A DNA stretch of 64,000 bases from an uncultured Oligoflexia bacterium (GCA_964013565.1 CAXGWU010000001.1:93601-157600), one strand, 5' to 3'; shown: positions 3,055 through 52,861, counted from the stretch's first letter. Made by a program: numbers and translations. Notes: generated by a model not told the origin, from the sequence alone.

Positions 3055-4455
3055 ATGAACGCATTGTTTCGTTTTTTAAGTTCTTTGAAGCTCGCGGTGA
3101 TCACCATCGTTGGGATTGCTATTGCACTGACAGTCGCTACTTTTCTGGAATCTTGGTATGACACTCGGACTGCGCGATTTTGGGTGTATCGGTCCTTTTG
3201 GTTTTATGGGATTTTGGCTTTATTAGGGGTAAATATTTTTGCGGTAATGGTTGATCGTTGGCCGTGGAAAAAACGACATCTTCCTTTCTTACTCGCACAT
3301 ATTGGAATTTTAATGTTGCTCTTTGGATCTTGGATGACCTATCAATCCGGACTCGATGGCTCTTTGATGTTGGAGGAGGGGCAGTCTTCTCCAAGAGTAG
3401 AACTCGAAGAAAACGTCCTCGTGCTTATTGATTCAATGAAAACCCAAATTCTACCCATTGAATGGAAGCCTGCTCATTATCCTTTTGAACCTTATTCTTT
3501 AGGTTCTTTCGATTTGGAAATGGATCAATGGATTTCTCATGCAGAACCTAAGATTCAATTTTCTAAAGCTCAGTCAGATGAACCTCCTGCAATTGAATTA
3601 GTAATTGAGGGAGGACCAATGAATTTTGAAAAGGCAATTTGGTTATTTGCTGGTGATCAAAATTGGAGCACTCTTTCTTTGGGACCGGCACAATTTACAC
3701 TGTTTCCAGTCAGTGTTGGTGTTGATGTGAAACAGTTATTTTCAGTACCGATTCGTAAAAATCATGCCTTTTTTTGGAGAGGAAAGAAAAACGAACTGCA
3801 TTATAGAATTTACTCAAAAGATGGAACTTATATGGGTGGAAGTCTATCTGAAAAATCTCAAGAAACTGTTTTGAGTACGGGCTGGATGAAGCAGATTAAA
3901 GAACTGAAACTACGCGTTCGTCAGTGGATGCCTCATGCATTAAACGAGACTTCCTATCATCCTGCAAGGGTTCAAAAAGGACCCGATGCTCCACCTTCAG
4001 CGATTCATTTAAGAGTGAAGGGAAAGTCCTCTGTGGGGGTATGGCTTGGTTTAGGAGATCGAGCAGTTTTAGATACGGGTGAAACAGAAATCCAAATTCA
4101 GTACCGTAGAAAACAAGTGATGCTTCCTTTTAGTTTGCACTTAGAAGAGTTTAAGATTCAAAATTATCAAGGAACTTATAATCCTGCGATGTACTCTTCA
4201 TTTGTAAGAGTCATTGACGAAAATGCACCTCAAGAAAAAATTGAAATTAAAATGAATGATCCATTAAAATGGAAGGGGTTCACTTTTTTTCAATCGAGTT
4301 ATGTTCCTGCACGACCTAGACCTACGATTTCGATTTTTACAGTGAATCAGGATCCAGGTCGATTCATGAAGTACTTGGGATCTATTTTGTTAGTTTTAGG
4401 TTCTGCACTTTTATTTATTCGAAAATACGTTGGAAAAAAGGGGAAAATATCATGA
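3055..4455 (+). CDS. ccsB: cytochrome c biogenesis protein ResB/CcsB (system II)
   Basis: N-terminal TM helices, a large periplasmic domain and C-terminal TM helices. MNALFRFLSSLKLAVITIVGIAIAL matches the ResB N-terminus. Overlaps ccsA by 4 nt, suggesting translational coupling. Confidence 0.8.
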   Translation: MNALFRFLSSLKLAVITIVGIAIALTVATFLESWYDTRTARFWVYRSFWFYGILALLGVNIFAVMVDRWPWKKRHLPFLLAHIGILMLLFGSWMTYQSGLDGSLMLEEGQSSPRVELEENVLVLIDSMKTQILPIEWKPAHYPFEPYSLGSFDLEMDQWISHAEPKIQFSKAQSDEPPAIELVIEGGPMNFEKAIWLFAGDQNWSTLSLGPAQFTLFPVSVGVDVKQLFSVPIRKNHAFFWRGKKNELHYRIYSKDGTYMGGSLSEKSQETVLSTGWMKQIKELKLRVRQWMPHALNETSYHPARVQKGPDAPPSAIHLRVKGKSSVGVWLGLGDRAVLDTGETEIQIQYRRKQVMLPFSLHLEEFKIQNYQGTYNPAMYSSFVRVIDENAPQEKIEIKMNDPLKWKGFTFFQSSYVPARPRPTISIFTVNQDPGRFMKYLGSILLVLGSALLFIRKYVGKKGKIS

Positions 4456-6119
4456 AAAGGTTAATTCTACTGGGGCTTTTAGTTTCTTCCTTTGTTTGGG
4501 CACAGCCCCAGCCTCATAATTTTAGTTTTTCACAAATAAAAAGAATTCCTATTCAAAATGGTGGGCGTTTAAAGCCTTTAGATTCATTTGCCAGAGAATG
4601 GGTTTTAGGAATTACAGGGTCTAGAACTTTTAAAGGTTTTGATTCGGTTGATTTAATTCTTTCATGGATTTCTTTTCCCAATGAATGGGAAAAAGAACCT
4701 TTTATCCGAATTAATCGTAAGGATGTAAAAAAACAACTTTTGTTGTCAGAAGACCGAAAATACTTCTCGCCACAAGAACTCACCCATAATGCGGCTTTTC
4801 TGCAGTATGCAGATCAGATTGCTAGTGAGATGGGAGGACAGGGAGTAAAAAAAGCTCAGGTGACAAAAACAGGAGTAAAAGAGGATGGTCGTCAGAGGGA
4901 ACTGAAGACGGTATTAGGAAGACTCACCTCTTTTCGTCGAGTGACTTCGGGGGAGGTGTGGACTCTCGTTCCAGATCCCCAAAAGTGGAAGTCAATTGCA
5001 GACTCCTCGTCCGCACCTGAAATTGAAAAAAGCTTTAAATCTCTTATTCGGGCCTACGTCGCTTCTGAGAAAGATGCTTTTAGTCAGGCAGCTGTTTTGT
5101 TGAAAGGGGCTGTCGAAGGAAAAATGAAAACTCAAGGTGCCGATATACAGACGGTTCAGTCTCGAGCAGGACTTGAAACGCTTAGCAATGAAATTCGCTT
5201 TTTTCAAAAAGCGTGGTCTTTGTATTTACTTGCAGGACTTTGTTTTTTGATGATGTGGGTAAGTCAAAGAAAGCGTTGGAAAGTTCTTGCGTGGGGCCTT
5301 GTTAGTTTAGGGTTTGTTTTTCATGTTTTAGGTTTTGGAATTCGAGTTTTTCTTACACAAAGAGCTCCTGTGACGAATATGTATGAGTCCATTGTTTGGG
5401 TAAGTTTCGGAGTGATGGTTTTTGCTTTTATTCTTTATCGACTTCAGAAGAAAAAGATTTTAATGACTACTGCTTGTTTTCTTTCTGCTTTAGCGTTGAT
5501 CGCTGCGGATGCCAATCCTACCATGTTAAATCCAGGACTGGATCCATTGGTTCCTGTTTTGAGAAGCAACTTTTGGCTTACCATTCATGTCCTGACCATT
5601 ACATTGGGGTACGCAGCATTTGCCCTGACTTATGGATTAGCAAATATTAATCTGTTTCATTTTTTAGCTGCAGCTTTGAAAGCTAAAAAAGAAAAGGTGA
5701 AACCTAAAGTTTCTCCTAAAATGGCTGATTTAAATCAACTGACCTATCGTGCGATGCAGTTTGGTGTGGTCTTACTCGCCGCAGGAACTATTTTGGGAGG
5801 AGTCTGGGCTGACTACTCCTGGGGAAGGTTTTGGGGATGGGACCCAAAAGAAGTGTGGGCTCTTATTGCTTTACTTTGCTACCTTGCTATTCTGCATGGT
5901 CGTTATGCGGGCTGGGTGAGACCTTTTGGCTTTGCTGCTTGGTCAGTGCTTGGGTTTACTTCAGTGGTAATGGCTTGGTATGGAGTGAACTTTGTGTTGG
6001 GAGTTGGACTTCACTCCTACGGGTTTGCGTCCGGTGGAATGGAGTGGGTGGCAACAGCTGTTTTGATACAAATTATTTTGGTTCTTCTTGTCTCTTTTTT
6101 TCATAAAAGAGCTTCTTAA
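4452..6119 (+). CDS. ccsA: cytochrome c-type biogenesis protein CcsA/ResC
   Basis: Trp-rich WWD-like motif (WGRFWGWDPKEVWALIAL) plus conserved His residues and multiple TM segments. Confidence 0.85.
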   Translation: MKRLILLGLLVSSFVWAQPQPHNFSFSQIKRIPIQNGGRLKPLDSFAREWVLGITGSRTFKGFDSVDLILSWISFPNEWEKEPFIRINRKDVKKQLLLSEDRKYFSPQELTHNAAFLQYADQIASEMGGQGVKKAQVTKTGVKEDGRQRELKTVLGRLTSFRRVTSGEVWTLVPDPQKWKSIADSSSAPEIEKSFKSLIRAYVASEKDAFSQAAVLLKGAVEGKMKTQGADIQTVQSRAGLETLSNEIRFFQKAWSLYLLAGLCFLMMWVSQRKRWKVLAWGLVSLGFVFHVLGFGIRVFLTQRAPVTNMYESIVWVSFGVMVFAFILYRLQKKKILMTTACFLSALALIAADANPTMLNPGLDPLVPVLRSNFWLTIHVLTITLGYAAFALTYGLANINLFHFLAAALKAKKEKVKPKVSPKMADLNQLTYRAMQFGVVLLAAGTILGGVWADYSWGRFWGWDPKEVWALIALLCYLAILHGRYAGWVRPFGFAAWSVLGFTSVVMAWYGVNFVLGVGLHSYGFASGGMEWVATAVLIQIILVLLVSFFHKRAS

Positions 6120-8310: not shown

Positions 8311-9795
8311 TTATCGTTTACTGTTAAAAGACAAAAATACACGATTGCATTTTAAATTTTCCCAGCTTTTTTGGTGATCTTGATAAGATTTCACAAGGTT
8401 ATCCAGTATTCTGTTTTTGAAAGGAGCCTTTTCAGAGAAAATTCTTGTTACTTTTTTGCTTGTCATTGAAATTTTTTGAATCAATGTAAAAAGGGTTACC
8501 GAAGGCTGAACGTCTCTTAGAACAGTATTGAGAATGTTTTCAAATTCTTTAGAGGAGATTTTCTTGTTTTTTCGTGCTACGGCTGTTTGTTCAAGAACGA
8601 GAAGAGGGATCCAGCGGTTTTTATAGTTTTTTGAAATTCTATGATAGAATTCAAAAAATTTAGAAATATCTTGTTTTTTACTTTCTTTGTTGAATGGTTT
8701 GTAAAAATTAGCAATTTCAGAATTGATAGATTCAATGTTTATTTTTTCTTTTTCCATTTTTAAAAGTAAATCTTCTTCATAATTCTTTTTTGAGATTCTT
8801 TTTTTTGTCCTATTCTTGATTTTGAATTGGTAGCCTAGCGCTTGAGCTTTTTTTATGACTTCCGCTAAAAAAGAATCGCTTGTAACAAGTTCGTAAATCG
8901 CTTTTTGATATCTAAGGAGATTCATTCTTACATCCGAAGACTTGGGGCCGAGTGACTTGGCGTAGCTATGATTGTTTTTATCTGTTGTAATTTCTGCAAA
9001 GCTTTGATTCCACGCGCCTACATAATGTTCATATCCAACTTCAGCAAACTTTGTTGAGACTTGATCATAGTAGTGAAGAGGAACGATGTTTTTATGATAT
9101 TCTGTTTGATCTGCTTGTTCTAAATTTTTTAATGTAGTTTCTTGAATTTTTCTTTTTTCCTTTAGTTCATATATGGATTCTCGAAAGGTTGGGGCAACTA
9201 CGCCTATAAAATAAAGTCGAGAAATGATGTCTTTGAGGTTTCCCCCGGAGTTTTCGTAGAGTCGGTACATTGCAGCAAGACAAGCTCGTCCTTGTCGTCC
9301 ATTTCCTTTAGAAACGGTGTCTACGAGTATGAGAGGTCTACCATTCATTCCATTTTTTAAGTCAAACCCTTTGCTTTTAAAAAGGCTATAGATTTGTTCG
9401 TCTGTAGGGTTGAATTTTGGACTAAAATCAGGATCCATTCCAAAAGTTGCTTTACTCATCCCCACTCTAATTACTTTATTGGGTTCTCCGATGCTATTGA
9501 AAAACCCTTCAATAATATCTGAAAATATTAGACTATCTCGACCTAAGAAGCCAAAAACTGCGTCTGGATAGATAAAAGATAAATGAGCGATAAATCTTGG
9601 TGCCTCTTTTTCTATAAATTGAAACCAATCAGGAAAAGGATTGTTTCCAGGAATTTCTTTTAAAACAGATTCCACCTTCTTCATAGATGGTCTTACGTTT
9701 TGATTGATTAAATTATTAATATCTTGGTCTTTTTGAGTCCAAGATAACATAGGAGAAAATAAGATAAGTAAGGCAATATATATTTTTGTTTTCAT
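8311..9795 (-). CDS. secreted hypothetical protein; member of an FxGRD / hhhDxSxxG paralog family
   Basis: Signal peptide MKTKIYIALLILFSPMLSW. The N-terminal region (…FGFLGRDSLIF… LILVDTVSKGNGRQGRACLAAMYRLYE…) is alignable with 13234-15192 and 16931-18463. Last gene of the seven-gene secreted operon. Confidence 0.55.
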   Translation of the reverse strand: MKTKIYIALLILFSPMLSWTQKDQDINNLINQNVRPSMKKVESVLKEIPGNNPFPDWFQFIEKEAPRFIAHLSFIYPDAVFGFLGRDSLIFSDIIEGFFNSIGEPNKVIRVGMSKATFGMDPDFSPKFNPTDEQIYSLFKSKGFDLKNGMNGRPLILVDTVSKGNGRQGRACLAAMYRLYENSGGNLKDIISRLYFIGVVAPTFRESIYELKEKRKIQETTLKNLEQADQTEYHKNIVPLHYYDQVSTKFAEVGYEHYVGAWNQSFAEITTDKNNHSYAKSLGPKSSDVRMNLLRYQKAIYELVTSDSFLAEVIKKAQALGYQFKIKNRTKKRISKKNYEEDLLLKMEKEKINIESINSEIANFYKPFNKESKKQDISKFFEFYHRISKNYKNRWIPLLVLEQTAVARKNKKISSKEFENILNTVLRDVQPSVTLFTLIQKISMTSKKVTRIFSEKAPFKNRILDNLVKSYQDHQKSWENLKCNRVFLSFNSKR

Positions 9796-9797
9796 TT

Positions 9798-11288
9798 CTA
9801 TTTTCCTCTCATGAGTGCAATTGCATCTTCTTCTGAATCAATAAGATGAATTCTTCTTTTTAACCATTCAGGGTAATGATCAGAGATTAAGTTTTTAAGT
9901 AACGGTTTATAGAATTCGCTATTTATAAAAGCTAATTGAGAGCGCTTATTTGGATTTCCAGAAAAATCAACAAAAGTTGTTGCTAGTTCTTTCATCGTTC
10001 CATTGCCTCCAGGTCCTACAAAAATAAGGTCTTTGTCGTGCAGTAAAAAAGGAATTCGTGTTTCATAATCCATTGATTCAATGACAAATCTTTTATTGCT
10101 AAAAGAATAAGATTTCCCAATGATAATATCGATGGCAGTTCCTCCATTATCAATGCTTGCATTTGCTGCGGCTTCCATGAGGCCACCCCCCCCACCGCTT
10201 GATAAGATATATTTATTTTTTGCAGAAACTTTAGCTACGAGTTGAACTAGTTGTCTCCAGCGATAGTCAAACGAACTAGACCCAAAAAAAACCGCTTTTT
10301 TATGATCTTTCAAACTTTCAGAAATATAATCTATATCTTCAATTCCAGCTAAGTAATTAGAGATGATTAATTTAAAACTATAATCAAATTGATGACTAAA
10401 CTTTTCTTCGTTGAAAGGAATAATGCTTTTATATCTATTGGGACCCGGAGTAATAAAACTTAAGTCATTTTTAATTTTTAAGTATGAAGACTTAAATTTT
10501 CCTAATGCTTTGAAATTTAAAAAGTCTGAATCCCATTCATTTTTATAGTTAATGAGGAAATCTAGTTTATCGATTAAATGAAGAGCTAAGGCTGTAACAG
10601 AACGAGTATCACCTACTGACTTTCCTATAGAAAAAGCTTTAAGTCTTAAGTAAGGATTTTCAATTGCAATGATGTTTTCATTTAAATTTTCTTTATTTGG
10701 GTCCGCAGTAATGCCTACTCCAAGTTTCCCTAATGTTTTTTGTATATCTTTCGCTGATATTGAATCTGCATCGTAGAAAAATATTTGAGAAAAATTAGAT
10801 AGTGTTTTTTTGAGTGAATTGAGATCGACTGTGGTTGGGTAATCGGTGGTTCCAAAAAGAAGAGTGTATGGATTCATATTGGAAAACGAATCTAACCACT
10901 TAAATCTCATAAGATCTGAAAGAAATGATTTTGATTGATCTTTTCTATCTAATTTAAAAATTTCCTCTATTGATAATTCTTGAGGTTTACTACTTTTTGA
11001 TGGAAGTTTTCTATTCTTGTTTTCGTAATGACTATTGGAATAACCTTTATAAGAATATGGGCTGTCTGTATCTAGACTTGTAACTGGAGATTGATAATCA
11101 AATTGGTATGTGTTGTTAACAGCAATCTCACTTATATCAGGAACTTCATCAATTTTAGGTGGTTTGATTCCGTGAATTCCAAAAACTAAAGCGCATTGAG
11201 AAGAAAATAAATGGTCCAAATTAGAAGTAGCGTTGGATGTTAATGTATAGATGATACCTACTATAGATATCAAAAAAAGATTTTTCAT
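9798..11288 (-). CDS. secreted protein with a C-terminal LOG-family (TIGR00730-like) domain
   Basis: Signal peptide. The C-terminus carries AVFFGSSS… ILSSGGGGGLMEAAANASIDNGGTAIDII… RIPFLLHDKDLIFVGPGGNGTMKEL, which matches the LOG GGGxGLMxA and PGGxGTxxE motifs. Overlaps the upstream gene by 4 nt. Confidence 0.65.
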   Translation of the reverse strand: MKNLFLISIVGIIYTLTSNATSNLDHLFSSQCALVFGIHGIKPPKIDEVPDISEIAVNNTYQFDYQSPVTSLDTDSPYSYKGYSNSHYENKNRKLPSKSSKPQELSIEEIFKLDRKDQSKSFLSDLMRFKWLDSFSNMNPYTLLFGTTDYPTTVDLNSLKKTLSNFSQIFFYDADSISAKDIQKTLGKLGVGITADPNKENLNENIIAIENPYLRLKAFSIGKSVGDTRSVTALALHLIDKLDFLINYKNEWDSDFLNFKALGKFKSSYLKIKNDLSFITPGPNRYKSIIPFNEEKFSHQFDYSFKLIISNYLAGIEDIDYISESLKDHKKAVFFGSSSFDYRWRQLVQLVAKVSAKNKYILSSGGGGGLMEAAANASIDNGGTAIDIIIGKSYSFSNKRFVIESMDYETRIPFLLHDKDLIFVGPGGNGTMKELATTFVDFSGNPNKRSQLAFINSEFYKPLLKNLISDHYPEWLKRRIHLIDSEEDAIALMRGK

Positions 11289-13237
11289 TTTATGTCCCCA
11301 ATAAAATTTTTCTCACATTTTTCCTCAATATCTCCATTAATTACTTCTTTTATAAATGTTTTTTTTATGTGAAGAGATTGAGCCCATTTATTTCCGAGTT
11401 CATCTAAATAGAGGAGTCTAGTTTCGGTATCTGTGGTTGTCGGAATGAGATGACCGTAGTACCAAAGGCTCCACGTTCCATTGTGAAAATATAAACTATC
11501 TGGAGTTAAACCGTGAATATATAGATTTAAATGAACTAGATGATCAAAAAAATCCGCAAGTGCTGTCCATGCAATTGTTTCATGAATTGGAACCGCTGCT
11601 TTATTTGAAAGCTCTCTTAAAGAAACTCCTTGTGGTTCATCTATCGCAACAAAATAAAGACTGTTTCTTATCTTAGAAACAATAATTCTATTCTCTTGTA
11701 GGTGCAATAGCTCATAGTATGAAGGTGTTCCTGGGTCAAACCTAAAGATCACTTGTTTTAAATTTTTTTCTTTTTGAATGATTTCATATTTTTTCAATTC
11801 TCCAATGTTCACTTTTTTTGGCGAAGAATTAATAAAAGGAGGCTCTTTTTTTATGTCATTATTTTCATAATTTAATTCATTACTTTTTTTTCGTCTTTTC
11901 TTTTTGGGACCTTTTGAATGATTTTGGAAGTTTTGTTTATCTAGTAATTCTTTCCAAAATAAATCAATTTCTTTTTTTTTGCTTTTAAGTTCTTCTCTTA
12001 ACCATTTTGTTTTTAGTTTGTTTGAGTATTCATTTAGAGTTCTATGTTTGCTGAAAAAAGTTCTAATTGGTCCGCTATCAACTATTTGCCATTCTTTTCC
12101 ATCAAAAATAAGATTGTCAGGGTTTAATCCGGAGACATAAATGTATTTTTCAGAAGCTTTAATGAAAAATTTTTCTAGTGCTAATTTTTTTGGGTTATTT
12201 TTTGTGTCTAAAATTTTTTCATCGAGAATCGCTTCTCTTAATCGAGTTCCTTCAATGAAATTCATAAGTAGAGACTTTTTATCTGTACTCCATTTCACAT
12301 TAACTGAAGACAGACCGTTTTTTCTCCATTCTTCTGATAGCTCTATCTGTTTTTTGAAACTTTTTTGAATATCCGCACTATCGTTTACTGGAACTTTCCA
12401 AGCCCATAGTTCTCCATTTGAGTCCTTTAACTGATGAACTCTACCTGTTTTTCCAACGCCTACGGCTTCTTTTTCTAATGAGTAACCTTCCGGAATATCG
12501 ACCTCTTTAACTGAGTTAATGAGAGCTAATAATTTTTCCCAGTTTTTTTCTTCAATCAAATCTTTGGCATTTTGTAAGAACTTTCTCCTTTGGCTAACTT
12601 CGGTAATGGTATTGGCTTTTTTTAGAACTTGAAAATGAATTGGTTCGAGATCAATTTTTGGGAAAACATACCGACTCAATCGCCTGAGAGTTTTTGTGTT
12701 TGCTCGGCTTGTGATAATCCAAATTAATTCAAAATCATCTCTATAAGAGGATAGAGGAAGGATATGTTTTGTAAAAGATTCTAATTCATCTAATGGTATG
12801 ATCGCTGCTGTATAACGAAGAGAAGGAAGTAAATTTTTTTCATTACTTTGAGTGAATAGTTTAAAGAGTGTAGAAAAGTTATAAATTTTTTTGTCGCTTA
12901 AAATGCCAATTAGAACATTGTTATTGTTTTTTCCTTTTTCTGAATGCAAATATTGATTAATAATGATGTCTCTTAGACAGAAACTTTCTGTCGCTAGTTT
13001 AATATAAAATTTATCAGGTGGGTTGTTTTGTGATTTAATGATTTCATCAATGATAGCTATATTCATCGCTTTATATTCATTGCTTTTCGCCAAAGATAGT
13101 TTTTTTATAACCTGAGAAATCGCCTCCCACTGTTGATTTTCGATTAGTTTTTTGAGTCGATGTGGAACCACGGTTTGAGCATGTGCTGGTATGATAAAAA
13201 ACAGACAAGCTAAATATAAGAAAATTTGTTTTTTCAT
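11285..13237 (-). CDS. secreted protein with tandem protein-kinase-like domains (atypical, possibly pseudokinase)
   Basis: Signal peptide. Domain 1: Gly-rich loop VGVGKTGRV, Lys in WAWKV, loop SGLNPDNLIF, and DSG. Domain 2: HGLTPDSLYF. Both lack a canonical HRD Asp. Confidence 0.5.
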   Translation of the reverse strand: MKKQIFLYLACLFFIIPAHAQTVVPHRLKKLIENQQWEAISQVIKKLSLAKSNEYKAMNIAIIDEIIKSQNNPPDKFYIKLATESFCLRDIIINQYLHSEKGKNNNNVLIGILSDKKIYNFSTLFKLFTQSNEKNLLPSLRYTAAIIPLDELESFTKHILPLSSYRDDFELIWIITSRANTKTLRRLSRYVFPKIDLEPIHFQVLKKANTITEVSQRRKFLQNAKDLIEEKNWEKLLALINSVKEVDIPEGYSLEKEAVGVGKTGRVHQLKDSNGELWAWKVPVNDSADIQKSFKKQIELSEEWRKNGLSSVNVKWSTDKKSLLMNFIEGTRLREAILDEKILDTKNNPKKLALEKFFIKASEKYIYVSGLNPDNLIFDGKEWQIVDSGPIRTFFSKHRTLNEYSNKLKTKWLREELKSKKKEIDLFWKELLDKQNFQNHSKGPKKKRRKKSNELNYENNDIKKEPPFINSSPKKVNIGELKKYEIIQKEKNLKQVIFRFDPGTPSYYELLHLQENRIIVSKIRNSLYFVAIDEPQGVSLRELSNKAAVPIHETIAWTALADFFDHLVHLNLYIHGLTPDSLYFHNGTWSLWYYGHLIPTTTDTETRLLYLDELGNKWAQSLHIKKTFIKEVINGDIEEKCEKNFIGDIK

Positions 13238-15192
13238 TTTTTAAGGTTTCCAGGTGTTCCAAATAGGATTTGACATGTCGAAGTACTGTTAGAACTAAAG
13301 CTCTTATTTTTACGACTGTCATGATAAAAGAACTCTTTTAAAAAATTCATATCTGAAAGCATTTCAGTTTGAGTTTTGTCTGTAAAAAAATAAGTATAAA
13401 ATCCTTTATTGAGACGTGGAGTGTAGTCTACATTAACAATTTGCTCAGCGTTATCGACCTGAAAATTTGCGGCTTTGAAGTCTAACCAAATGTTTTGTTC
13501 TGCTGCAATTTTTTTTGCGATAAGCCATTGTTCCAATACCTGGTTTTTTATTTTTTTCGGTATTTCTTCAATTGGATTTTGAGAATATTTTGCTTCTAAG
13601 TTTTTTCCGTCAAAGTAAGTTTGTTCTACAATTACCCCTGTTGGATGTGCATAAAGTATTTTTGCATGCCTAAAATTTGGATAATTTTTTAGAATTCTAT
13701 CTTGTGTCCATTTTTGCAAAAGAGATTTACGTGCATTTTTTGGGTTTTTTGTAATTTTAATAACTCTATTTTTATCACTTAAAAATACTTGTACATTTCT
13801 ACCTTCTCCTAGATATCCTTTTAACTTATAGAGGACTGCATTATTAGAGGTTAGAACCATTGGGTAATTTGGATCATCGCTTTTTTTGATTTCCAGAGAT
13901 GAAAAAAAGTCATTTGCTCCCTCTAATGGTTCCAGATATTGCCAATCTTTCATAGCACTGAAGCCTTTTTGATGGACTTCAGATATTTCCTGAAATAAGA
14001 GTTCGTTTTTGTTTAAGTCTTTTTTGTTTTTTCTTATTTTTTCTTGATTTTTAGTGGTCTTCTTTTTTACTGGAATAATTGTTTCAGCAAGTCGTAGATC
14101 AGATACTAGTCCAAGGAGTGATATAACTTTTTGAGATAGTTTTATAGGTTTGTCACTATAAATATGAAGTGACGGTTTTGTTTTAAATTTTAGTCCTGTT
14201 TGTATAAACTTATGACGATGCTCTAGTAGATTGTGAACATGATCAGCATCCCAGTGATTAATTGCTCCTGGAATAGCGATTTGAAATCGTTGAATAGAAA
14301 AAAAATAATCAGTTTCGGTGAGTTTTTTAATAGTCTCTGAAGAGAGTTCTTCGTTGTTCCTGGTGTAATTGTTGATAATATCTTTAAAAGAAGAGTTTCC
14401 ATCTACTCTTTTTGATCTCAAATATCTGAAATCTACAAGTTTCAGGAATTGAGTTGCTTCAGATTTATTTAGGTTTTCACAAATGGCTCTTAAAATTGCT
14501 CTGGGAATTTTTCCAGACATACTTGAATCCATAAATACTAAGCCATTTTTTAATAATCTCTCTTTTGTTAGTCCGATGGAATTTAATAAATGGTAAATTT
14601 CAGAAGTTTGATGGTTGAAGATTAAGTCTCTTATTTTCCTTGATACATTAAGGGTGTAAAGAAAATTTTTATCTATAGATTTTTTTAAAGAGATAAAAAG
14701 ATATGGAGCCGTAAAGTCTCTTCCTATAAAAAATAAATTTTTATTATTAAAATCTCTTTTGATTTCATTTTCTATTTGAGCGATTACAGGAATGATGACT
14801 TCTGTTTCGTATTCTTGAGTGTAACGAATAAGTTGATCTGTTATTTTTTTAGAATCAATTGAATCTAAAGAAACAACACCGATTTTTTTGTCTAATTCAA
14901 GAGCACTATTTTTAAGTTTTGAGCGTTTATTTGACCAATGAAAAAAGAGTTCATTGAAAAACTGAGTTTTTTCTTGAGTCGTTAGAGTTTTAACTTCTTC
15001 TAAAATTAAATAGATGTCATTACGAATTGACTCTAAAATATCGGTTTGAATCCATTTTTTAAGAAATTCATCGTAGCTATTAGAGTTTTGGGCTTGAAGA
15101 GCTGATTCATAGTGATTTTCTATTACATCGCTGGAAAATACATTAGTCTCAGTAAAGCAAAATAATAGAATAAATAAAATTAATTTATTCAT
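13234..15192 (-). CDS. secreted protein with an N-terminal FxGRD-family domain and a C-terminal protein-kinase-like domain
   Basis: Signal peptide. N-terminus has NLFFIGRDF… VFMDSSMSGKIPRAILRAICE, paralogous to 8311 and 16931. C-terminus has LGEGRNVQVF (Gly loop), VIKITK (Lys), DFKAANFQV (catalytic-loop-like D..K..N) and VNVDY. Confidence 0.55.
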   Translation of the reverse strand: MNKLILFILLFCFTETNVFSSDVIENHYESALQAQNSNSYDEFLKKWIQTDILESIRNDIYLILEEVKTLTTQEKTQFFNELFFHWSNKRSKLKNSALELDKKIGVVSLDSIDSKKITDQLIRYTQEYETEVIIPVIAQIENEIKRDFNNKNLFFIGRDFTAPYLFISLKKSIDKNFLYTLNVSRKIRDLIFNHQTSEIYHLLNSIGLTKERLLKNGLVFMDSSMSGKIPRAILRAICENLNKSEATQFLKLVDFRYLRSKRVDGNSSFKDIINNYTRNNEELSSETIKKLTETDYFFSIQRFQIAIPGAINHWDADHVHNLLEHRHKFIQTGLKFKTKPSLHIYSDKPIKLSQKVISLLGLVSDLRLAETIIPVKKKTTKNQEKIRKNKKDLNKNELLFQEISEVHQKGFSAMKDWQYLEPLEGANDFFSSLEIKKSDDPNYPMVLTSNNAVLYKLKGYLGEGRNVQVFLSDKNRVIKITKNPKNARKSLLQKWTQDRILKNYPNFRHAKILYAHPTGVIVEQTYFDGKNLEAKYSQNPIEEIPKKIKNQVLEQWLIAKKIAAEQNIWLDFKAANFQVDNAEQIVNVDYTPRLNKGFYTYFFTDKTQTEMLSDMNFLKEFFYHDSRKNKSFSSNSTSTCQILFGTPGNLKK

Positions 15193-16880
15193 CTTTTATT
15201 CCTCTTTTTATTAAAGAAATAAATTTCTTCATCTAAAAGGCCAAAGCTGAAGAGGGTCTCTATAGTGATTTTTAATTCAAAATCGTTTTTGACAAAATGA
15301 ATTCTATCTTTAATGAATTGCGGAATTGATGAGCTGTCGATTTGATTTTTTAAGCCACTGTAATAGTCATCACCCACAAAAATGATCTCTAATTTTTCTT
15401 TTGGGTTTTCTAGAAGTTTTAGAATCGTTATCCAAAATTCTTTCATGGTTCCAGAGCCTCCTGGAACAAAAACAACAAGTTGTTTTTCGTGAAGAAGGAG
15501 AGGGATTCGGGTTTCATATCCACTACTCGAAACGGTAAGAGAATGATGTTCTTTTTCTACTTTTTTTTCTGTTTTTAGAGTGTGTTTACCCGTGATAGGG
15601 ATCCCAACTGATGGAACATGAGATGATATTGCTGCAGTATTTGAAGTTTTCATGGCACCGCCAGCTCCGCCAGTCGTGATGCTAATATCAAGAGATCCTA
15701 AGGCGAGACCAGATTTGAAAATAAGGTTCTCAAAAGGATTCTCATCCCTTCCCGTTCCAAAAACTGCAGCTCCTCTTACTCCTGTTAAATCTTCTTGTCC
15801 GATTAGAAGTTCAGTAACTTCTTTGACGATATGATCAATTTGATAATCAGAAAGGTCTGAAAGAGTTATTTTTTTTGGTTTAAATTGTTTTGTAATTATT
15901 GGGAAAATTTCTGTCTCAACGTGAGGAGAGGTACGAATAGGCTCTCCTGCAAGGTCAAATTCTTGATTAAAGTAACTTTTACTGTAGATAGGAGATGAAG
16001 GGATTTTTTTAATCGCTGTAGTAACGGTTGTAGCTTGATCAAAAATAGGTATTTCTTTAGTTCGAACTCCCATGTTTATGTTCATAAGATCTAAGTCTTG
16101 TTTCCATTGATGAAGAGAAAAGTTCCATTCTTTTTTTGGATCAAAAATAATGTCTATTTCATTATTGAATAATCCCGCAAATCCAGTTGTGGAGTCAGGA
16201 GTTGTAATTATTTTTTCCGAGGTGTTAAATAAAGCCTGTGCTCTTAAGTAGGTGTTTTTAATGTAAACTTGGCCTCTTTGTTTTGTTGGTTGATTAGAGA
16301 TACCAAAAGATGATTTTTGAGCTAGAGATTGAATTAGTTTAGCGTAAGGACTATTTGATTCGTAGAGGATAAAATATCCACGAGAAATAAATTGAGAAAC
16401 TAATTCGGTCAATTCAGTTTGCATTTGAGGATCAGGCTGTGTTCCAGAAGTCCCTGCAAGAATCGTCACTGTTTGTTTTGAATTTAGTTTTTTTAATCTT
16501 TCTAGGTTGAGGTGATCTTGAATGTACTGACCTTCAGTAGTTAATAATACCAATTCAAGTGCTTTTAGGTTTTTTTCTCTGTTTGTTTTTTTTAGACGTT
16601 GAATCTCTGAAGTTATTTGAGCTATTTGCTTTTTTACCGATTGATTTTCTTTTTTTCCAGAATTACTAAAAATTTTTTTTAGTAATCCTCTTTGTTTTTT
16701 AGAAATTTTTTTAGTATTTAAAGACGTTAATTTTTTTTCTAATTCTTTAATCCGTTCTGACTCCTGATTTAGACTAGTTAGTCGTTCTAATGTGGATAGA
16801 CGACTTAAAAAATTTTCTTCACATCCGGCTAAAGAGAAGTGATGGGCAATTAAAGTTAAAATAATAATAAGTTTTTTCAC
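15189..16880 (-). CDS. lipoprotein with a C-terminal LOG-family domain
   Basis: Lipobox LAGC after the signal peptide. C-terminus has AAVFGTGR… ISITTGGAGGAMKTSNTAA… RIPLLLHEKQLVVFVPGGSGTMKEF (LOG motifs). Paralogous over this domain to 9798-11288. Confidence 0.65.
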   Translation of the reverse strand: MKKLIIILTLIAHHFSLAGCEENFLSRLSTLERLTSLNQESERIKELEKKLTSLNTKKISKKQRGLLKKIFSNSGKKENQSVKKQIAQITSEIQRLKKTNREKNLKALELVLLTTEGQYIQDHLNLERLKKLNSKQTVTILAGTSGTQPDPQMQTELTELVSQFISRGYFILYESNSPYAKLIQSLAQKSSFGISNQPTKQRGQVYIKNTYLRAQALFNTSEKIITTPDSTTGFAGLFNNEIDIIFDPKKEWNFSLHQWKQDLDLMNINMGVRTKEIPIFDQATTVTTAIKKIPSSPIYSKSYFNQEFDLAGEPIRTSPHVETEIFPIITKQFKPKKITLSDLSDYQIDHIVKEVTELLIGQEDLTGVRGAAVFGTGRDENPFENLIFKSGLALGSLDISITTGGAGGAMKTSNTAAISSHVPSVGIPITGKHTLKTEKKVEKEHHSLTVSSSGYETRIPLLLHEKQLVVFVPGGSGTMKEFWITILKLLENPKEKLEIIFVGDDYYSGLKNQIDSSSIPQFIKDRIHFVKNDFELKITIETLFSFGLLDEEIYFFNKKRNKR

Positions 16881-16930: not shown

Positions 16931-18463
16931 TTATTTTTTATCTATTTGTGTAAAAATTCGATTACATCCAGTTTTTGTAAGATAATCTGAGATGGTTTTA
17001 GTGTGTTCCGAAATTTTCCCTCCAAATTTGTCGGAGTTTTTAAATTCATCTTCTCTTTTTTCAAACATAGATCTGAATTTTTCATCGTTTTCATAAAGCT
17101 CCCGAATAGCTTTTAGTTGATCGTCAGAAAGAGAAGGAGTGTTGCCTAGGACATAACGATAAAGTCGTTTATAATCTCTTCCTTTAATTTTCTGAGAAGC
17201 TCTTGCTCTAGTGATAGCCTGCATAAATGGGACAATGATTTTGTCTTTAAAATCTGTATTTTGAAATTGCTTTAACCATTGAAGGTAGTGATTTCCGTTG
17301 TTTGAGAGTTTGTTTGTGATTTCTCCGGGTTCATTTAAAGATTGTTCTATTTCAAAAAGGTTTTTTAGATGTTCTTTAAGTTGTTCTTGTTTTTTCTCTT
17401 CTTGAAGAGCTAATTCTTTTTTTCTTTGTTTTTTTCTTTCATTGATTTGTTGTGACGTTAGTGATTGATAAAGTTTTGAATTTCCATCTAAATCAATTTT
17501 ATAGAGTTTTAGATATTCATCTAATTTGTCTTTAAATTCATTAGATTTAATGAGTTCGATAATTATATAAATTTCTTGTAAAACAGTTTTTTTTGAAATA
17601 TTCGAAAATTGCACGCCAGAAATTGGAATAAGTTTTTCGTTTATTTCTTTAAAACCTAGCCATGAATCATGCCACTCTGAAGTCCTATGATTTATCCTAA
17701 AAAAAGTTCCATAACTTGTGCTTAATCGTGGAACCGGTACGCCGTCTATATGAGATAGTGATGATACGTTTTCGAAAAAGTTTTCCTGATCAAAGTCTTC
17801 GTTGATAGTATGTTTTAGGTTGTTGTCGCTAATATTAACAAACGCAATTTTTCCAAGAAGATCTTTTGGGTCTTTTCCTAGATTTTTGTAGGTTTCATAG
17901 AGATATCTCATCGTTAGCCTGGATTGGCTTGCTTCTCCTCCTCCTCCTCCACTGGTATAAGTTGGGCTATAGCTACTAAAATCATAGAGAACCCAAGGGG
18001 CACTTTCTGTAATGGTATCGAAGTTAATGCCTAGAGACTGAGCATATCGAACAATGGTTTCTGAGGAAGAGTTTTTAAAACTTGGAGTACTTGCGTTGAA
18101 TCTTCCTGCGCGATTAGGCTCACCTCTCAGATAGTAAAACGCTTCCAGGGCTAGACTATTTTGGATGACATCTCTTCCAAGAGAAAAATATCTTCCTCCA
18201 GGAAAGGCTTTTTCAAAACTTACAATCATTCTGGCGATATTGTTTATAGCATTAGGGTAAGCATTAGCGATAAACTCTTGATTAAGCATTTTTTCATGAC
18301 TCGGCCATGGGTTGAGTACAGTGAGCATTTCTTCGATTGTGGGAACTGTTTTTTTTTGTACTAACTCATCAATTTGATTTTCTAATTGTGTTTGATCAGA
18401 AAAAGCAAAAGAAATGAAAAGAAAGTGGAGGCTAAAAAAAATAGATTTATTTATGAGTTTCAT
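16931..18463 (-). CDS. secreted hypothetical protein; FxGRD / hhhDxSxxG paralog family member
   Basis: Start chosen at the internal Met (MKLINKSIFFSLHFLFISFAFS signal peptide) so that it abuts rather than overlaps the Prs-like gene. Carries RYFSLGRDVIQ… WVLYDFSSYSPTYTSGGGGGEASQSRLTMRYLYE. Confidence 0.5.
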   Translation of the reverse strand: MKLINKSIFFSLHFLFISFAFSDQTQLENQIDELVQKKTVPTIEEMLTVLNPWPSHEKMLNQEFIANAYPNAINNIARMIVSFEKAFPGGRYFSLGRDVIQNSLALEAFYYLRGEPNRAGRFNASTPSFKNSSSETIVRYAQSLGINFDTITESAPWVLYDFSSYSPTYTSGGGGGEASQSRLTMRYLYETYKNLGKDPKDLLGKIAFVNISDNNLKHTINEDFDQENFFENVSSLSHIDGVPVPRLSTSYGTFFRINHRTSEWHDSWLGFKEINEKLIPISGVQFSNISKKTVLQEIYIIIELIKSNEFKDKLDEYLKLYKIDLDGNSKLYQSLTSQQINERKKQRKKELALQEEKKQEQLKEHLKNLFEIEQSLNEPGEITNKLSNNGNHYLQWLKQFQNTDFKDKIIVPFMQAITRARASQKIKGRDYKRLYRYVLGNTPSLSDDQLKAIRELYENDEKFRSMFEKREDEFKNSDKFGGKISEHTKTISDYLTKTGCNRIFTQIDKK

Positions 18464-18464
18464 T

Positions 18465-19850
18465 TTATTTAATCTTTCTGCGTATAAATAACGTTTTACA
18501 AAGTGGAGTCTTTTTTTCTCCTGAAAATACAGACTGTAAAGTTTCCGAAATTTCAAAACCTAAATTTAAAACTGATATATCTGGCTGAGTAATGTTAAAT
18601 GAATTCGTCACAACCATGAGATCAATGTCTGGCGAGTCAATTGCTTTTTGAGCGTTTCCTGCAAGATGGCTAACAACACCAAATATCTTATTTGCACCAT
18701 GCTTTTTAAGAAACTCTGCTGACTCGGCAAGTGTTCCTCCAGAGGCAGTTTCGTCATCAACAATCGCTACAGTATGCCCTTTTACAGAGTCTCCACTAAT
18801 CCCGAGAATACGAGTCTCTCCAGTGAGAGGATTTCTTTTCTTATTGATAATTGCGAGGGGTAGGTGAAGTTCTTCTGCATATAAAGTAGCATCTTTTTGA
18901 AAACCAGCGTCAGGAGAAACGATAATAGAAACTCCCAGTTTCTTGAGTTCTTTATTGATTGTTTCTCTTCCGTTGATTTCAAAAACAGGGATAGAAAAAA
19001 AACCTACACTCTGAGGTGCATGCGGTCTTACAATTGTTATTGTTTTTACTCCTAGTCCCTCAATGAGGTCAGCAGTGAGTCTTCCTGTTACAGTAATTCC
19101 AAATTGATCTATCTTATCTGATCGAGCATAAGGAAGGTAGGGAGAGATCAGGTGAACTTGTTGCCACTTTGATTGAGTGCTATATATTTTATGTAAAGTA
19201 TCAAAAAATGATTTGTTTATTGGAGACTCAAGAGAAGATACATAAAATATATTGTATCCAGAGAGCTTTTTATTGTTGGGGTTCCATTCAGATTCTTGAA
19301 TGACTGGGATATTGAGTTGTTTTGATAAGGTGTCTCTCAATGAAGGGTTTGTGTCTCCTACAATTGCAAACTTTTTTTTAAAATTTTTTGTTTTTGTTTG
19401 ATATTCTGGAAAGTCATAATCTTGGTTTGCAATACGGTAAGATTCCGCCCCCGAAATTTTGAAAAGTTTTAATACAAAAGTTGAAGGTAAGGATTCAGAT
19501 TCAAAATGAACGGATATTGATAAGGCACCCATTGTTTTAGCGGTGCGAACTTTAATGAGAGCTTCCATAAGAAGGTCATCATGATCTTCAATGTTGTTTG
19601 GAATATACAGAGTTAGTTTCTGATTGATAGGATTTTTTAAAAATCGAACAAAAGTATTTCCGTTGCTAAACTCCGTTGTTTTTGTCGGAAGAATTTTACT
19701 TTCAATAGTTTCAGAATACGATTGAGTCTTTGCCTCATATCCACGAATTCCAACAAGCCATGGCTTTTTAGAAGCGATACAAACATTTGAAAAGCTAAAG
19801 CTTAAAAGAAATAAAAGTCCAAATTGTATTTTTTTTTGTGCCCCACCCAT
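18465..19850 (-). CDS. secreted ribose-phosphate pyrophosphokinase (Prs/PRPP synthetase) homolog with an N-terminal extension
   Basis: Signal peptide MGGAQKKIQFGLLFLLSFSFSNVCIA. Matches Prs landmarks: FAIVGDTNPSLRDTL…, ISPYLPYARSDK (cf. PYFGYARQDRK), RPHAPQSVGFFSIPVFEING (cf. DLHAxQIQGFFDIPVDN), IVSPDAG, AIINKKR, and PRPP loop VAIVDDETASGGT. The first ~130 aa look like a degenerate extra Prs N-half. Confidence 0.7.
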   Translation of the reverse strand: MGGAQKKIQFGLLFLLSFSFSNVCIASKKPWLVGIRGYEAKTQSYSETIESKILPTKTTEFSNGNTFVRFLKNPINQKLTLYIPNNIEDHDDLLMEALIKVRTAKTMGALSISVHFESESLPSTFVLKLFKISGAESYRIANQDYDFPEYQTKTKNFKKKFAIVGDTNPSLRDTLSKQLNIPVIQESEWNPNNKKLSGYNIFYVSSLESPINKSFFDTLHKIYSTQSKWQQVHLISPYLPYARSDKIDQFGITVTGRLTADLIEGLGVKTITIVRPHAPQSVGFFSIPVFEINGRETINKELKKLGVSIIVSPDAGFQKDATLYAEELHLPLAIINKKRNPLTGETRILGISGDSVKGHTVAIVDDETASGGTLAESAEFLKKHGANKIFGVVSHLAGNAQKAIDSPDIDLMVVTNSFNITQPDISVLNLGFEISETLQSVFSGEKKTPLCKTLFIRRKIK

Positions 19851-27887: not shown

Positions 27888-30800
27888 ATGGCTCATCAGA
27901 AAAATTCAGATCAAAAAAAGTTTGAAAAACCACGTCACTGGGTAGCTCTAGAGGAACTTTCAGAGAGTTATTGGGGTGATGGAGGGTCACAGGAAAAGAG
28001 AGGGCAAGAGTTTCTTTTTAAACCTGTGGAAACGATAGCAAATATAGACAAAATTGATTCCAAAGGAATGGCCAGACGGGATTTTTTAACTGTGATGGGC
28101 GCTTCGATGGCCATGGCTTCTTTGTCTTGCGCAAGAAGACCGGTTTCAAAAATCATTCCCTACGTTAATAAACCAGAAGAAGTAACTCCTGGGGTACCTA
28201 ATTTTTATGCTTCAACTTTTGTTGATGGAACAGCTTCAACTGGAATTTTAGTGAAGACTAGAGAAGGTCGGCCCATTAAACTCGAAGGAAATCCTGATCA
28301 CCCTACAAGTTTAGGGGCGTTAAGCGCGAAGGCTCAAGGTTCGCTTCTTGGATTGTATGACCCAGATCGATTGAGAGCACCGCAGAAGGTTCAGTCTTTT
28401 CGAACCGCTCCGATGACGTGGTCTGAAATTGATCAGACCGTTGTTTCTCGATTAAAAAGTCTTGCTGTTGGAGATGGAGGGGTCCGTTTTTTAACTGCTC
28501 CACTGGTGTCGCCGAGTGCATCTCGACTGACTCAGGATTTTTTACAGGCGTTTAAAAATGCAAAACATGTGGAGTGGGATGTCGAGTGTTTCGATGATTT
28601 AAGGCTTTCACAAAAAGACAATTATGGAACCGACTCTATTCCAAACTATCACTTTGATCGAGCAGATGTGATTGTCTCTTTTGGTGCCAACTTTATTGAT
28701 GGATGGCTTTCTCCAACTGAGTATGCAAAAGCATGGTCAAAAAATAGAAAAGTAAAAAGTGAAGATTCGGCTCAGGCAAAAATGTCAGAGACTTATGTGT
28801 TTGAGTCAACCATGACTCCAACAGGAAGTAATGCAGATCATCGTTATGCGATTGCTCCGGGGGATGAGCTGAGTGTGGCTGCTGCAGTTGCATATGAAAT
28901 TGCTCGTAAAGCTGGAGTGAGCACTTCTGCTTTTTCAGAATATAGCCCTGAAGCGGTTGCTGCAGCGGTGGATGGTTTTTTAACGGCCAAGGATATTAAA
29001 AAAGTAGCGAAAACGTTGTGGGCTGCGAGAGGACGTTCTTTGGTTGTTGGTGGATCTTTGAATGCTTCAACTAAAAACGCTCATGCACTTCAGGCGACTA
29101 TTAATTTTCTGAATTCGACGTTGGAAAATGAAGGAAAGACAGTCGATGGAACAGGTGATGTTTTTACTGTCGGTGGAAGTTCTGAAGATTATTTAAAATT
29201 AAAGAAAGAGATGGCTTCAGGGAAAGTTGATCTTTTAGTTATTTCTGGACTGAATCCGGGGTACATGGATCCGACATGGGAAGCTGCTGTTGCAAAAGTT
29301 CCTATGGTTTTGGTAGTTACTGACCGCGTTGATGAAACAGCAAAGTTAGGTCATTATGTTCTTGCTTCTCACCATGCTCTTGAGGCTTGGGGAGATGTTC
29401 AAGTTCGAAAATCAATCATGAGTTTGGTACAACCAACCATTGCTCCTTTAGGTGACACTCGTTCCTATGAAGATCTTCTTTTAAATTGGGCTTCGAAAGC
29501 AGGTTTAAGAGTAGGAACATTAACTCAATCTTATCTTTCTCAAGAAAAAGAACCGACTACTCACACTTACTTAAAGTACTTTTGGAAAAAAGAAGTTTAC
29601 CCTGAGTGGGGACATTCTGAAGGATTCGAAATTTTTTGGGAGAACACTCTTCGGAAAGGTGTTGCGAATCGAACAACAAAACAAGGAGTTCGTAAGTTTA
29701 GTTGGGGTCGAACAAAAATTCCTTCATTGAAAAAAAATTCTGCAATGAAGCTTGCCCTTTATGAAATGGCACATTATGGGGATGGGGCTCATGCAAATAA
29801 TGCTTGGCTTCAAGAACTTCCGGATCCGGTGAGTTCTATTACTTGGGATAATTTTGCAAACATTGCTCCGTCTACGGCAAAAAAGATGGGAATTCGTCAA
29901 GATGATGTCATTGAAGTGACTTCAGGTTCGCTTCGAATGGAGCTTCCGGTGAATGTCCAACCGGGGATGCATCCTCGAACGATTTCAGTGGCGACTGGTT
30001 ATGGTCGATTTGCGGCTGGACGAGTTGGAAATGGAACAGGAGTGAATGTTTATCCATTTGCTTCTTGGGATGAGGAAGTTACTTTTTCTGGACGGGAGAT
30101 TGATATTCGTAAAACAGGACGTCGGTATCAATTGGCTGCGGTTCAAGGCCACCACCGTACAGAAGGAAGACCGATCATTAATGATATTACTTTAGAAGAA
30201 TTTCAAAATAATCCAAAAGCGGAAAATCATACAGACCCTCATTTGAGGTTAAAAACAGTCCCTACCATGTGGACTCAGCACAAATATCCTGGGTATCGAT
30301 GGGGAATGGCAATTGACTTAAATTCGTGTACGGGGTGTGGAGCATGTGTTGTTGCATGTCAGGCCGAAAATAATATTCCAGTTGTTGGGAGAGATCGGGT
30401 TCGGGTAGGACGAGAGATGCATTGGATTCGTGTGGATCGATACTACGCGGGATCTGAAGATCAACCTGATGTCGTTTATCAACCCTTGATGTGTCAGCAT
30501 TGTGAGAATGCTTCTTGCGAAACGGTGTGTCCGGTACTTGCCACTGTTCATGGCAGTGAAGGTTTGAATGAGCAAGCCTATAATCGATGTGTTGGAACTC
30601 GATACTGTTCGAATAACTGTCCTTATAAAGCACGTCGGTTTAACTTCTTTGATCATTGGAAGGATTATAAAGATTCAATGAATCTTGTGTGGAATCCCGA
30701 TGTGACGGTACGTTCTCGAGGAATTATGGAAAAGTGTACTTTCTGTGTACAAAGAATTAATTCTGCTAAAGATATTGCGAAAAAAGATGGGAGACGAAAG

Positions 30801-52649: not shown

Positions 52650-52861
52650 GGAGTTTTTATAACGCAATAAGTCATTGTTTTCAATGAAGAAGGTTCGTAG
52701 GGCCTTTGATTCAAATTTCAGGTTCGACCCATGCATTTATTTGAAATTACTATTAAAATTGTAACGATTTAGTCTGGAACTTCGAATAAGTTCTATTACA
52801 GGCGAAAAATAGTACTTCTAAAAAGGAAAGTTTGTTTCGATTGACTCGATTATCAATCTTT

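Follow-up and report, generated by a model that had tools for sequence, protein, structure and literature searches.

A predicted exported two-domain LOG-family protein encoded in a phosphoribosyl pyrophosphate-related operon of Bdellovibrionota

Introduction

LOG enzymes are known as small homo-oligomers of the cytoplasm, with roles in cytokinin activation or in the control of nucleotide pools. What could a LOG-family protein be doing with a signal peptide, a second domain and a place in an operon whose products all appear to be exported? The question is raised by a 64,000-nucleotide stretch of DNA, hereafter the window, from an uncultured Oligoflexia bacterium (GCA_964013565.1, CAXGWU010000001.1:93601-157600). 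The gene concerned, g3 (15189..16880, minus strand), is the third of seven tightly packed genes, g1 to g7, which form a minus-strand operon from position 19850 down to 8311. The window sequence matches a 271-kb TARA Oceans scaffold and an NCBI contig (DKAD01000053.1, GCA_002450715.1) from a metagenome-assembled genome (MAG). All seven operon products are now annotated as “hypothetical protein” of a Bdellovibrionaceae or Pseudobdellovibrionaceae bacterium in public records. The Bdellovibrionota are largely predatory.

The initial annotation of this locus described g3 as a LOG-domain protein and predicted lipoprotein, paralogous to a second LOG gene of the same operon, and proposed that the two copies differ in substrate specificity or form a heteromeric pair. 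The analysis reported here suggests that g3 represents a branch of the LOG family that is exported, is fused to an apparently dead copy of itself and, among labelled loci, is found only in Bdellovibrionota MAGs. With moderate confidence, we read g3 as an exported phosphoribohydrolase that would free ribose-5-phosphate within an extracytoplasmic set of enzymes centred on phosphoribosyl pyrophosphate (PRPP). Literature searches returned no description of this family, of the operon or of the cysteine tag shared by its products. The same held for a pseudo-LOG plus LOG architecture, for the helical stalk described below, for an exported PRPP-related operon and for extracytoplasmic PRPP chemistry of such a kind. 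The operon and the tag may be more novel than g3 itself.

LOG identity of g3

The open reading frame (ORF) at 15189-16880 is real: it starts with GTG, encodes 563 amino acids and matches the public protein MBN20593.1 exactly. On the minus strand, the order of its parts is a signal peptide (aa 1-19, V/MKKLIIILTLIAHHFSLAG; 16824..16880), a tag with a single cysteine (CEENF, aa 20-24; 16809..16823), an α-helical stalk of about 110 residues rich in Lys and Glu (aa ~21-130; 16491..16820), a Rossmann-like, degenerate LOG-like domain hereafter named N-domain (aa 135-292; 16005..16478), a linker (aa 294-330; 15891..16001) and the catalytic LOG domain, or C-domain (aa 365-545; 15246..15788). An AlphaFold2 model built from 43 sequences reached a mean predicted local distance difference test score (pLDDT) of 86.8 and a predicted template modelling score (pTM) of 0.82, and g3 displays in it the Rossmann-type fold expected of a LOG protein. 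In this model, DSSP assigned helices to aa 2-56, 61-70, 74-112 and 117-130, and the N-domain spans aa 137-292. The linker is probably disordered, with pLDDT below 50 at aa 294-309 and 314-330.

Both LOG motifs quoted in the initial annotation lie where it had placed them: ITTGGAGGAMK occupies aa 401-411, and FVPGGSGTMKEF occupies aa 471-482. The first contains GGAGGAM (aa 404-410; 15651..15671), which corresponds to the nucleotide-binding motif GGxxGxM of LOG proteins, and the second contains PGGSGTMKE (aa 473-481; 15438..15464), a PGGxGTxxE motif ending in E481. The residue R458 (15507..15509) aligns with the Arg of solved LOGs and is the equivalent of the catalytic Arg99 of the Corynebacterium glutamicum enzyme (CgLOG). 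Over 43 family members that are only about 25% identical, G375, G404, G405, G408, M410, R458, P473, G474, G477, T478 and E481 are all invariant. In CgLOG, catalysis is proposed to rest on Arg99 and Glu122, the last residue of PGGXGTXXE; that motif holds the 5'-phosphate, and the active-site pocket arises by dimerisation (PMC4979012). The distance from R458 to E481 is 23 residues, equal to that from Arg99 to Glu122.

In Pfam, g3 passes the thresholds of PF03641 (33.1 bits, gathering threshold 27) and PF18306 (29.4 bits, threshold 26.3), and no other Pfam domain was found. A phmmer search against the Protein Data Bank (PDB) returned type-II LOGs (9us2, 2e-8; 5wq3, 5e-7; 1wek, 6e-7), with GGxxGxM, the Arg and PGGxGTxxE aligned. 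Scores in NCBIfam are far below the cutoffs, both for TIGR00730 (28.8 bits, cutoff 96.35) and for the PpnN family NF038390 (15.8 bits, cutoff 450). Judged from its sequence, g3 is thus a divergent branch of the LOG superfamily. The superfamily motifs seen by the initial annotation stand, and the candidate identity of g3 as a PpnN orthologue was rejected on the NF038390 score.

The type-II LOGs Cg1261 of C. glutamicum (5WQ3), TT1465 of T. thermophilus (1WEK) and Neisseria meningitidis YgdH (9US2) share with g3 the GGxxGxM motif, the Arg, the PGGxGTxxE motif and the Arg-Glu spacing. At about 20% identity to g3, they are single-domain cytoplasmic proteins of roughly 200-260 aa that form homo-dimers or hexamers, whereas g3 is predicted to be exported, combines its Cys tag and long stalk with an additional, degenerate LOG-like domain, and has other residues at the base-binding positions. 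PpnN/YgdH of Escherichia coli (relative, 3BQ9) converts nucleoside monophosphates to base and ribose-5-phosphate, which is the activity proposed for g3, but g3 has no PpnN flanking domains by Pfam. PpnN itself is a cytoplasmic enzyme under (p)ppGpp control.

The positions that contact the base set g3 apart from cytokinin LOGs. The residues M96, H97, K100 and E121 of CgLOG, which contact the adenine or prenyl group, correspond to Y455, E456, I459 and K480 in g3, and the family consensus across these pocket positions is GYExRIP ... GTxKE. With these replacements, a cytokinin nucleotide is probably not what g3 acts on; the chemistry is probably that of LOGs, with a different preferred leaving group. 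An identity of g3 as a canonical LOG that activates cytokinins, or as a lysine decarboxylase, is hardly tenable, although PF03641 bears the name “Possible lysine decarboxylase” and the PDB matches are annotated as cytokinin riboside 5'-monophosphate phosphoribohydrolases. The prenyl- and adenine-contacting residues are not kept, TIGR00730 stays at 28.8 bits for a cutoff of 96, and g3 is a predicted exported two-domain protein of Bdellovibrionota, which have no evident plant association. The canonical cytokinin LOG was rejected on its pocket residues, and the decarboxylase label is a known misannotation of the LOG family (PMC4979012).

A probable degenerate LOG copy in the N-domain

The N-domain of g3 retains N209, R213, S230 and G233 and lacks both GGxxGxM and PGGxGTxxE. 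It keeps motifs of its own throughout the family (VxLLxGN, GYxVxYDADS, GxGI, IxNxYLRMxA and DSxxGxGL). In the AlphaFold2 model, its strands and helices follow the order of a LOG domain, with the near-invariant R213 placed in a helix like R458. Alignment of the N-domain with ten canonical short LOGs by hhalign gave E 8.5e-4 and a probability of 24% over 153 co-linear columns, in which R213 falls opposite the catalytic Arg and DSxxG opposite PGGxGT. The family N-domain did not align significantly with the family C-domain (E 0.03, probability 1.7%), and hmmsearch with the N-domain profile gave no significant match to LOG sequences. A far higher hhalign probability against “short LOGs” (96.9%) was discarded as an artefact of an N-domain fragment, P0137, among the targets.

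Our moderately confident conclusion is that the N-domain derives from a LOG domain that has degenerated and that g3 may be an intramolecular pseudo-dimer. The pTM of 0.82 suggests that the two domains are arranged in a defined way. The degenerate N-domain would pack on the C-domain and stand in for the second subunit of a LOG dimer, which completes the active-site pocket.

The degenerate state of the N-domain also bears on whether the protein is an enzyme at all. SLOG-type domains mostly bind ligands or DNA and belong to systems of the cytoplasm, and the LOG domain of g3 could be a non-catalytic nucleotide-binding sensor or scaffold of this type that regulates or organises other exported enzymes. 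In keeping with this, the score for PF18306 (LDcluster4, SLOG cluster 4) is about equal to that for PF03641, and the N-domain is clearly non-catalytic. Nevertheless, the proposed catalytic Arg and Glu and the entire PGGxGTxxE motif are invariant in an otherwise ~25% identical family. Unlike the SLOG superfamily, which includes the SLOG domain of ThsA, DprA and the molybdenum cofactor carrier protein, g3 keeps the full LOG catalytic set, and we regard a purely sensory or scaffolding role as very improbable.

Partner proteins encoded in the operon

Genes of the operon overlap by codons or are spaced by 1-2 nt (1 nt between g1 and g2, an ATGA overlap between g3 and g4), the exception being a gap of 50 nt ahead of g3. 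All seven products start with a Sec-type signal peptide.

The first gene, g1 (18465..19850, minus strand, as are all operon genes), encodes a PRPP-synthetase-like protein (PRS-like; TIGR01251, 180.4 bits for a cutoff of 113). Its PRS motifs PYLPYARSDK, HAPQ..GFF, SPDAG, NKKR (the KKR of the flexible loop) and VDDETASGGT align with those of 7pn0 and 5t3o. What sets the protein apart is a Sec signal peptide together with about 150 additional aa at the N-terminus; a PRPP synthetase that depends on ATP would not be expected to be exported.

The products of g2 (16931..18463, 510 aa) and g7 (8311..9795, 494 aa) are paralogues (E 1.7e-15, 22% identity) of what we call the A family, characterised by the invariant residues G85-R86-D87 (GRD), S114, D159 and Q168. 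The mechanically called ORF of g2 (16931-18556) opens at a TTG at 18556 and overlaps g1 by 92 nt; the true start is likely the ATG at 18463 (MKLINKSIFF...), which gives the 510-aa protein with a signal peptide found in the public record. The A family has no match in Pfam or NCBIfam, and neither its full nor its core profile matched PDB sequences. An AlphaFold model from five sequences is mediocre (pLDDT 64 overall, 70-89 in the core), and Foldseek found no significant match for it in the PDB. Its likeness to PRPP-dependent ribofuranosyltransferases is nonetheless suggestive. Bcs3-CriT is a PRPP-dependent transferase with a phosphoribosyltransferase (PRTase)-like core and helical bundles, in which S678-R679-D680 and E818 form the PRPP pocket (PMC10299916). 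The modelled A family may likewise have a PRTase-like α/β core with flanking helical bundles, as in Bcs3 CriT and in a polysaccharide ribofuranosyltransferase of T. composti, and G85-R86-D87 together with D159 would parallel S678-R679-D680 and E818, the Arg-Asp following the first strand in each. That two rare structures of the PRPP-transferase type came out as top matches for a family adjoining a PRPP synthetase gene is unlikely to be a coincidence. The differences are that CriT, which has no detectable sequence similarity to the A family, works in the cytoplasm as part of a fusion with a HAD phosphatase and a ribitol-phosphate transferase, whereas the A-family proteins are predicted to be exported and no phosphatase was recognised in the operon.

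The gene g4 (13234..15192, 652 aa) encodes an A-like core in its N-terminal half and kinase-like motifs in its C-terminal half. The A-family HMM does not match g4, and hhalign related its N-terminal half to the A-family core with E 7e-5 and a probability of 63%. The product of g5 (11285..13237, 650 aa) is protein-kinase-like. By eye, motifs resembling the G-loop, the catalytic loop and DxG of kinases are present in g5 and in the C-terminal half of g4, and a g5 homologue in locus L014 scores 24.4 bits (E 2e-5) against Pkinase, under the gathering score. No PDB sequence matched g4 or g5, and BLASTP found no similarity between them.

Distribution of the family and its recurring neighbourhood

An exhaustive HMMER search for the family returned 220 cluster representatives at E<=1e-3, 130 of them at E<=1e-10. 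Most matches are 500-800 aa long and cover g3 residues ~30-540. Among the best 150, 114 have the N-C architecture of g3, 28 have the C-domain only and three the N-domain only, three are tandem canonical LOG-LOG proteins and two are N-N-C. The tandem proteins (P0135, P0145 and P0149) are possible evolutionary intermediates. Searches of k-mer-indexed proteins with g3, with g3 and g6, or with the A-family alignment returned essentially the clusters of the query itself only. A pattern scan of 185,579 species genomes with a 13-sequence alignment led to 14 loci, all in Bdellovibrionota/Oligoflexia MAGs (labelled Bdellovibrio, Bdellovibrionales, Bdellovibrionia, Oligoflexia, Oligoflexales or “delta proteobacterium”), and six further loci, for the most part short and without a label, came from a scan of metagenomes.

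Gene neighbourhoods were counted over 21 loci, namely the 20 fetched and the window. The LOG gene adjoins A-family genes in 14 of the 21, and a PRS-like gene adjoins it in eight; homologues of g4 and g5 are present in L008/L014 and in L009. One homologue, P0097, fuses an N-C LOG module to a g5-like segment. The linkage of LOG, PRS-like, A-family and kinase-like genes is conserved.

Within this neighbourhood LOG-A is the tightest recurring pair, and several loci carry it without a PRS-like gene (e.g., L007, L010, L012 and L018). Rather than supplying ribose-5-phosphate, g3 and g6 could hydrolyse a phosphoribosyl adduct made by the A-family transferases, as an eraser or in maturation. Y455, E456, I459 and K480 at the base-contact positions would be consistent with so unusual a leaving group. 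However, a transferase and a hydrolase acting on one bond from one operon would form a futile pair, no acceptor is known, and CriT-type links are O-glycosidic (PMC10299916) whereas known LOGs cleave N-glycosidic bonds (PMC4979012). We find such a role distinctly unlikely, and retain release of ribose-5-phosphate as the preferred function of the two LOG proteins.

The paralogue g6

The other LOG gene of the operon, g6 (9798..11288), encodes a two-domain protein of 496 aa. As the initial annotation had claimed, the two genes are paralogous (BLASTP E 8e-24, 24% identity over 441 columns, aa 98-530 of g3 and 98-483 of g6) and belong to one operon. The layout of g3, from signal peptide and Cys tag through stalk, degenerate N-domain and linker to the LOG domain, is found in g6 as well. 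The “different N-terminal region” attributed to g3 applies to the first ~100 residues only, homology beginning at about residue 98. The family N-domain profile matches both proteins (E 1e-55 for g3, 1e-38 for g6), and the C-domain profile also matches g6. In Pfam, g6 passes PF18306 (32.5 bits) and remains under the PF03641 threshold of 27 (25.3 bits).

Two LOG copies occur in the window and in five of the 14 genome loci (L007, L009, L011, L013 and L014). In a neighbour-joining tree, the L009 copy beside the PRS-like gene groups with g3 and the second L009 copy with g6, which suggests that the duplication is old; the topology is star-like, and no branch carries bootstrap support. Unlike g3, g6 lacks an 8-residue segment bearing the near-invariant E438 and T449, and this loss is compatible with a different specificity. 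P0046 and P0060 are single-chain fusions of two LOG modules, N-(degenerate C)-N-C, which lend some “Rosetta-stone” support to a functional LOG pair. The idea of different specificities or of a heteromeric pair thus gains from the recurring paired copies, the fusions and the missing segment, and loses the argument from the N-terminal regions, which are mostly homologous.

A cysteine tag shared by the operon products

The initial annotation had read LAGC at the end of the g3 signal peptide as a lipobox. This sequence does fit PROSITE rule PS51257 (Cys at 15-35, Lys or Arg in the first seven residues), with Cys20 as the candidate lipidated residue. The signal peptide could be removed by signal peptidase (SPase) II, cutting at LAG|C, or else by SPase I, cutting at SLA|G. 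The prediction of a lipoprotein does not carry over to the family, since only two of 109 full-length homologues follow the rule, and in one of the two, P0037, the lipobox Cys differs from the tag Cys. A Cys within residues 15-60 is found in 83 of the 109, typically a few residues past an AxA-type SPase I site, as in the tags SCRGVY, SCKNVY, TCLELF, VCAKLF and ACEDGF.

A single conserved Cys in the context C-x-x-[ILV]-[LFY], of which CEENF is the instance in g3, is present in all seven operon proteins. It lies at the mature N-terminus in both LOG proteins (CALVF at 11181-11195 in g6) and 5-15 residues from the C-terminus in the five others, namely g1 (CKTLF, 18486-18500), g2 (CNRIF, 16952-16966), g4 (CQILF, 13261-13275), g5 (CEKNF, 11303-11317) and g7 (CNRVF, 8335-8349). 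Homologues of these five in other Bdellovibrionota MAGs carry it at the same end. The N-terminal (n=83) and C-terminal (n=38) tags have this profile in common, and position +4 is F, Y, L, W, I or M in 86% of the former and 97% of the latter. Exactly one Cys in the last 25 residues is found in 29 of 34 non-LOG cluster proteins, in 16 of 92 background ORFs taken from the same loci and in none of 19 LOG proteins. When every window ORF of 200 aa or more is considered, the C-terminal tag is confined to the five operon proteins that are not LOG proteins. The mature operon proteins are otherwise poor in Cys.

Since the lipobox occurs in two of 109 homologues yet the Cys in 83, and since a C-terminal Cys cannot be part of a lipobox, the tag Cys is, on this pattern of conservation, kept for a reason other than lipidation. 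Cys20 of g3 may be acylated in addition or instead. The most economical idea is that the tag may serve disulfide tethering of exported proteins. To our knowledge, no known sorting or lipidation signal fits the tag. A CaaX-type prenylation box and a MYXO-CTERM-like signal were considered and rejected on the general features of those signals: the tag is not at the extreme C-terminus, is not followed by a transmembrane segment and also occurs at mature N-termini.

The tagged set is larger than the seven families of the window, because neighbours in other loci have a signal peptide and the same C-terminal tag (L009 3510-4265 and 1687-3513 and L004 12596-13549, all minus strand). One of the tagged L009 neighbours is cytidylyltransferase-like (PF01467, 34 bits).

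The lipobox leads to a simpler account of g3, as a stand-alone lipoprotein nucleosidase of the periplasm or outer membrane, acylated on Cys20 and salvaging imported or prey nucleotides in the manner of PpnN, uncoupled from its neighbours. The exact fit to PS51257, the intact LOG catalytic residues and the fact that LOG hydrolysis needs no ATP, so that it can run in the periplasm, all suit this account. It also has a precedent in BP1253 of Bordetella pertussis, a LOG with the catalytic Arg and Glu that is predicted to be extracytoplasmic, and prefers GMP, a substrate other than a cytokinin nucleotide (PMC6864091). BP1253 differs from g3 in being single-domain, dimeric and 48% identical to TT1465, and it lacks a Cys tag, a second, degenerate domain and an operon related to PRPP. 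Against the account stand the absence of a lipobox from 107 of 109 homologues in a family that keeps the Cys, the same Cys motif at the C-termini of the neighbours, where a lipobox is impossible, the linkage to A-family and PRS-like genes across distant MAGs, and the fusion of P0097 to a g5-like domain. We therefore judge it unlikely.

Proposed function of the exported enzyme set

The preferred reading of g3, an exported phosphoribohydrolase that acts together with its neighbours, can be drawn as a sequence of steps. The LOG proteins g3 and g6 would work extracytoplasmically, either in the periplasm or within prey, and cut the bond between C1' of ribose-5-phosphate and a base or other leaving group; the ribose-5-phosphate released would be turned into PRPP by g1. 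The A-family proteins g2 and g7 and the N-terminal half of g4 would move the phosphoribosyl group from PRPP to some acceptor. AMP produced by g1 could in turn be cleaved by the LOG enzymes. In the oxidising space outside the cytoplasm, disulfides formed by the tag cysteines would tether the enzymes to each other or to a partner that they share.

Several points weigh against this reading. The PRPP synthetase and the kinases need ATP, which the periplasm lacks. The homology between the N-domain and LOG domains is weak (hhalign probability 24%; E 0.03 against the C-domain of its own family). The sequence of g3 fits the lipobox rule, and Cys20 might be acylated instead of forming a disulfide. Finally, there are two N-terminal and five C-terminal tags in the window, so a simple pairing of LOG and partner proteins by disulfides is incomplete.

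As the periplasm is without ATP, the scheme needs the prey cytoplasm, the bdelloplast or another ATP-containing space. Action in the prey cytoplasm or bdelloplast is plausible, assuming the predatory lifestyle typical of the phylum. A broader and more speculative proposal, to which we give only tentative credence, is that predatory Bdellovibrionota export a complete PRPP-based set that acts outside the cytoplasm of the producer, either stapled together by the Cys tag or released by reduction in prey. This set would comprise LOG-type hydrolases that take ribose-5-phosphate off nucleotides, a PRPP synthetase, transferases that use PRPP as phosphoribosyl donor, and kinases for small molecules or proteins, with the Cys tag working at either end of a protein. 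The outcome would be a phosphoribosylated target in the prey or at the surface, or a cycle of LOG, PRS and transferase that burns the ATP and nucleotide pools of the prey.

If confirmed, extracytoplasmic PRPP chemistry would be a new class of predator-prey or cell-surface biochemistry. The terminal Cys tag is a simple sequence signal that could be used to find further members of the set and could help in studying the assembly or targeting of exported enzymes.

Surroundings of the operon

The operon lies between thyA-folA and uvrD. Its GC content is 0.321, compared with 0.384 elsewhere in the window; this AT-richness could reflect a foreign origin or the K/N/E-rich composition of the proteins. 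A scan for promoters and terminators gave fewer sites than in shuffled controls and was uninformative. An 81-aa ORF across the g4/g5 junction in another frame (13077-13322, minus strand) is probably spurious.

Elsewhere in the window, three long ORFs have no Pfam match: 50016-52736 (minus strand, 906 aa), 54960-58487 (plus strand, 1175 aa) and 48550-50067 (minus strand, 505 aa). The first of these lies within a second patch of low GC content (0.308 at 50-52 kb). Ordinary respiratory genes are found around the operon (27888-32376, 41681-43282 and 3055-6119, all plus strand), including those for a molybdopterin/4Fe-4S protein and NrfD, which resemble alternative complex III, for cytochrome oxidase subunit I and for ResB/CcsA cytochrome c assembly proteins.

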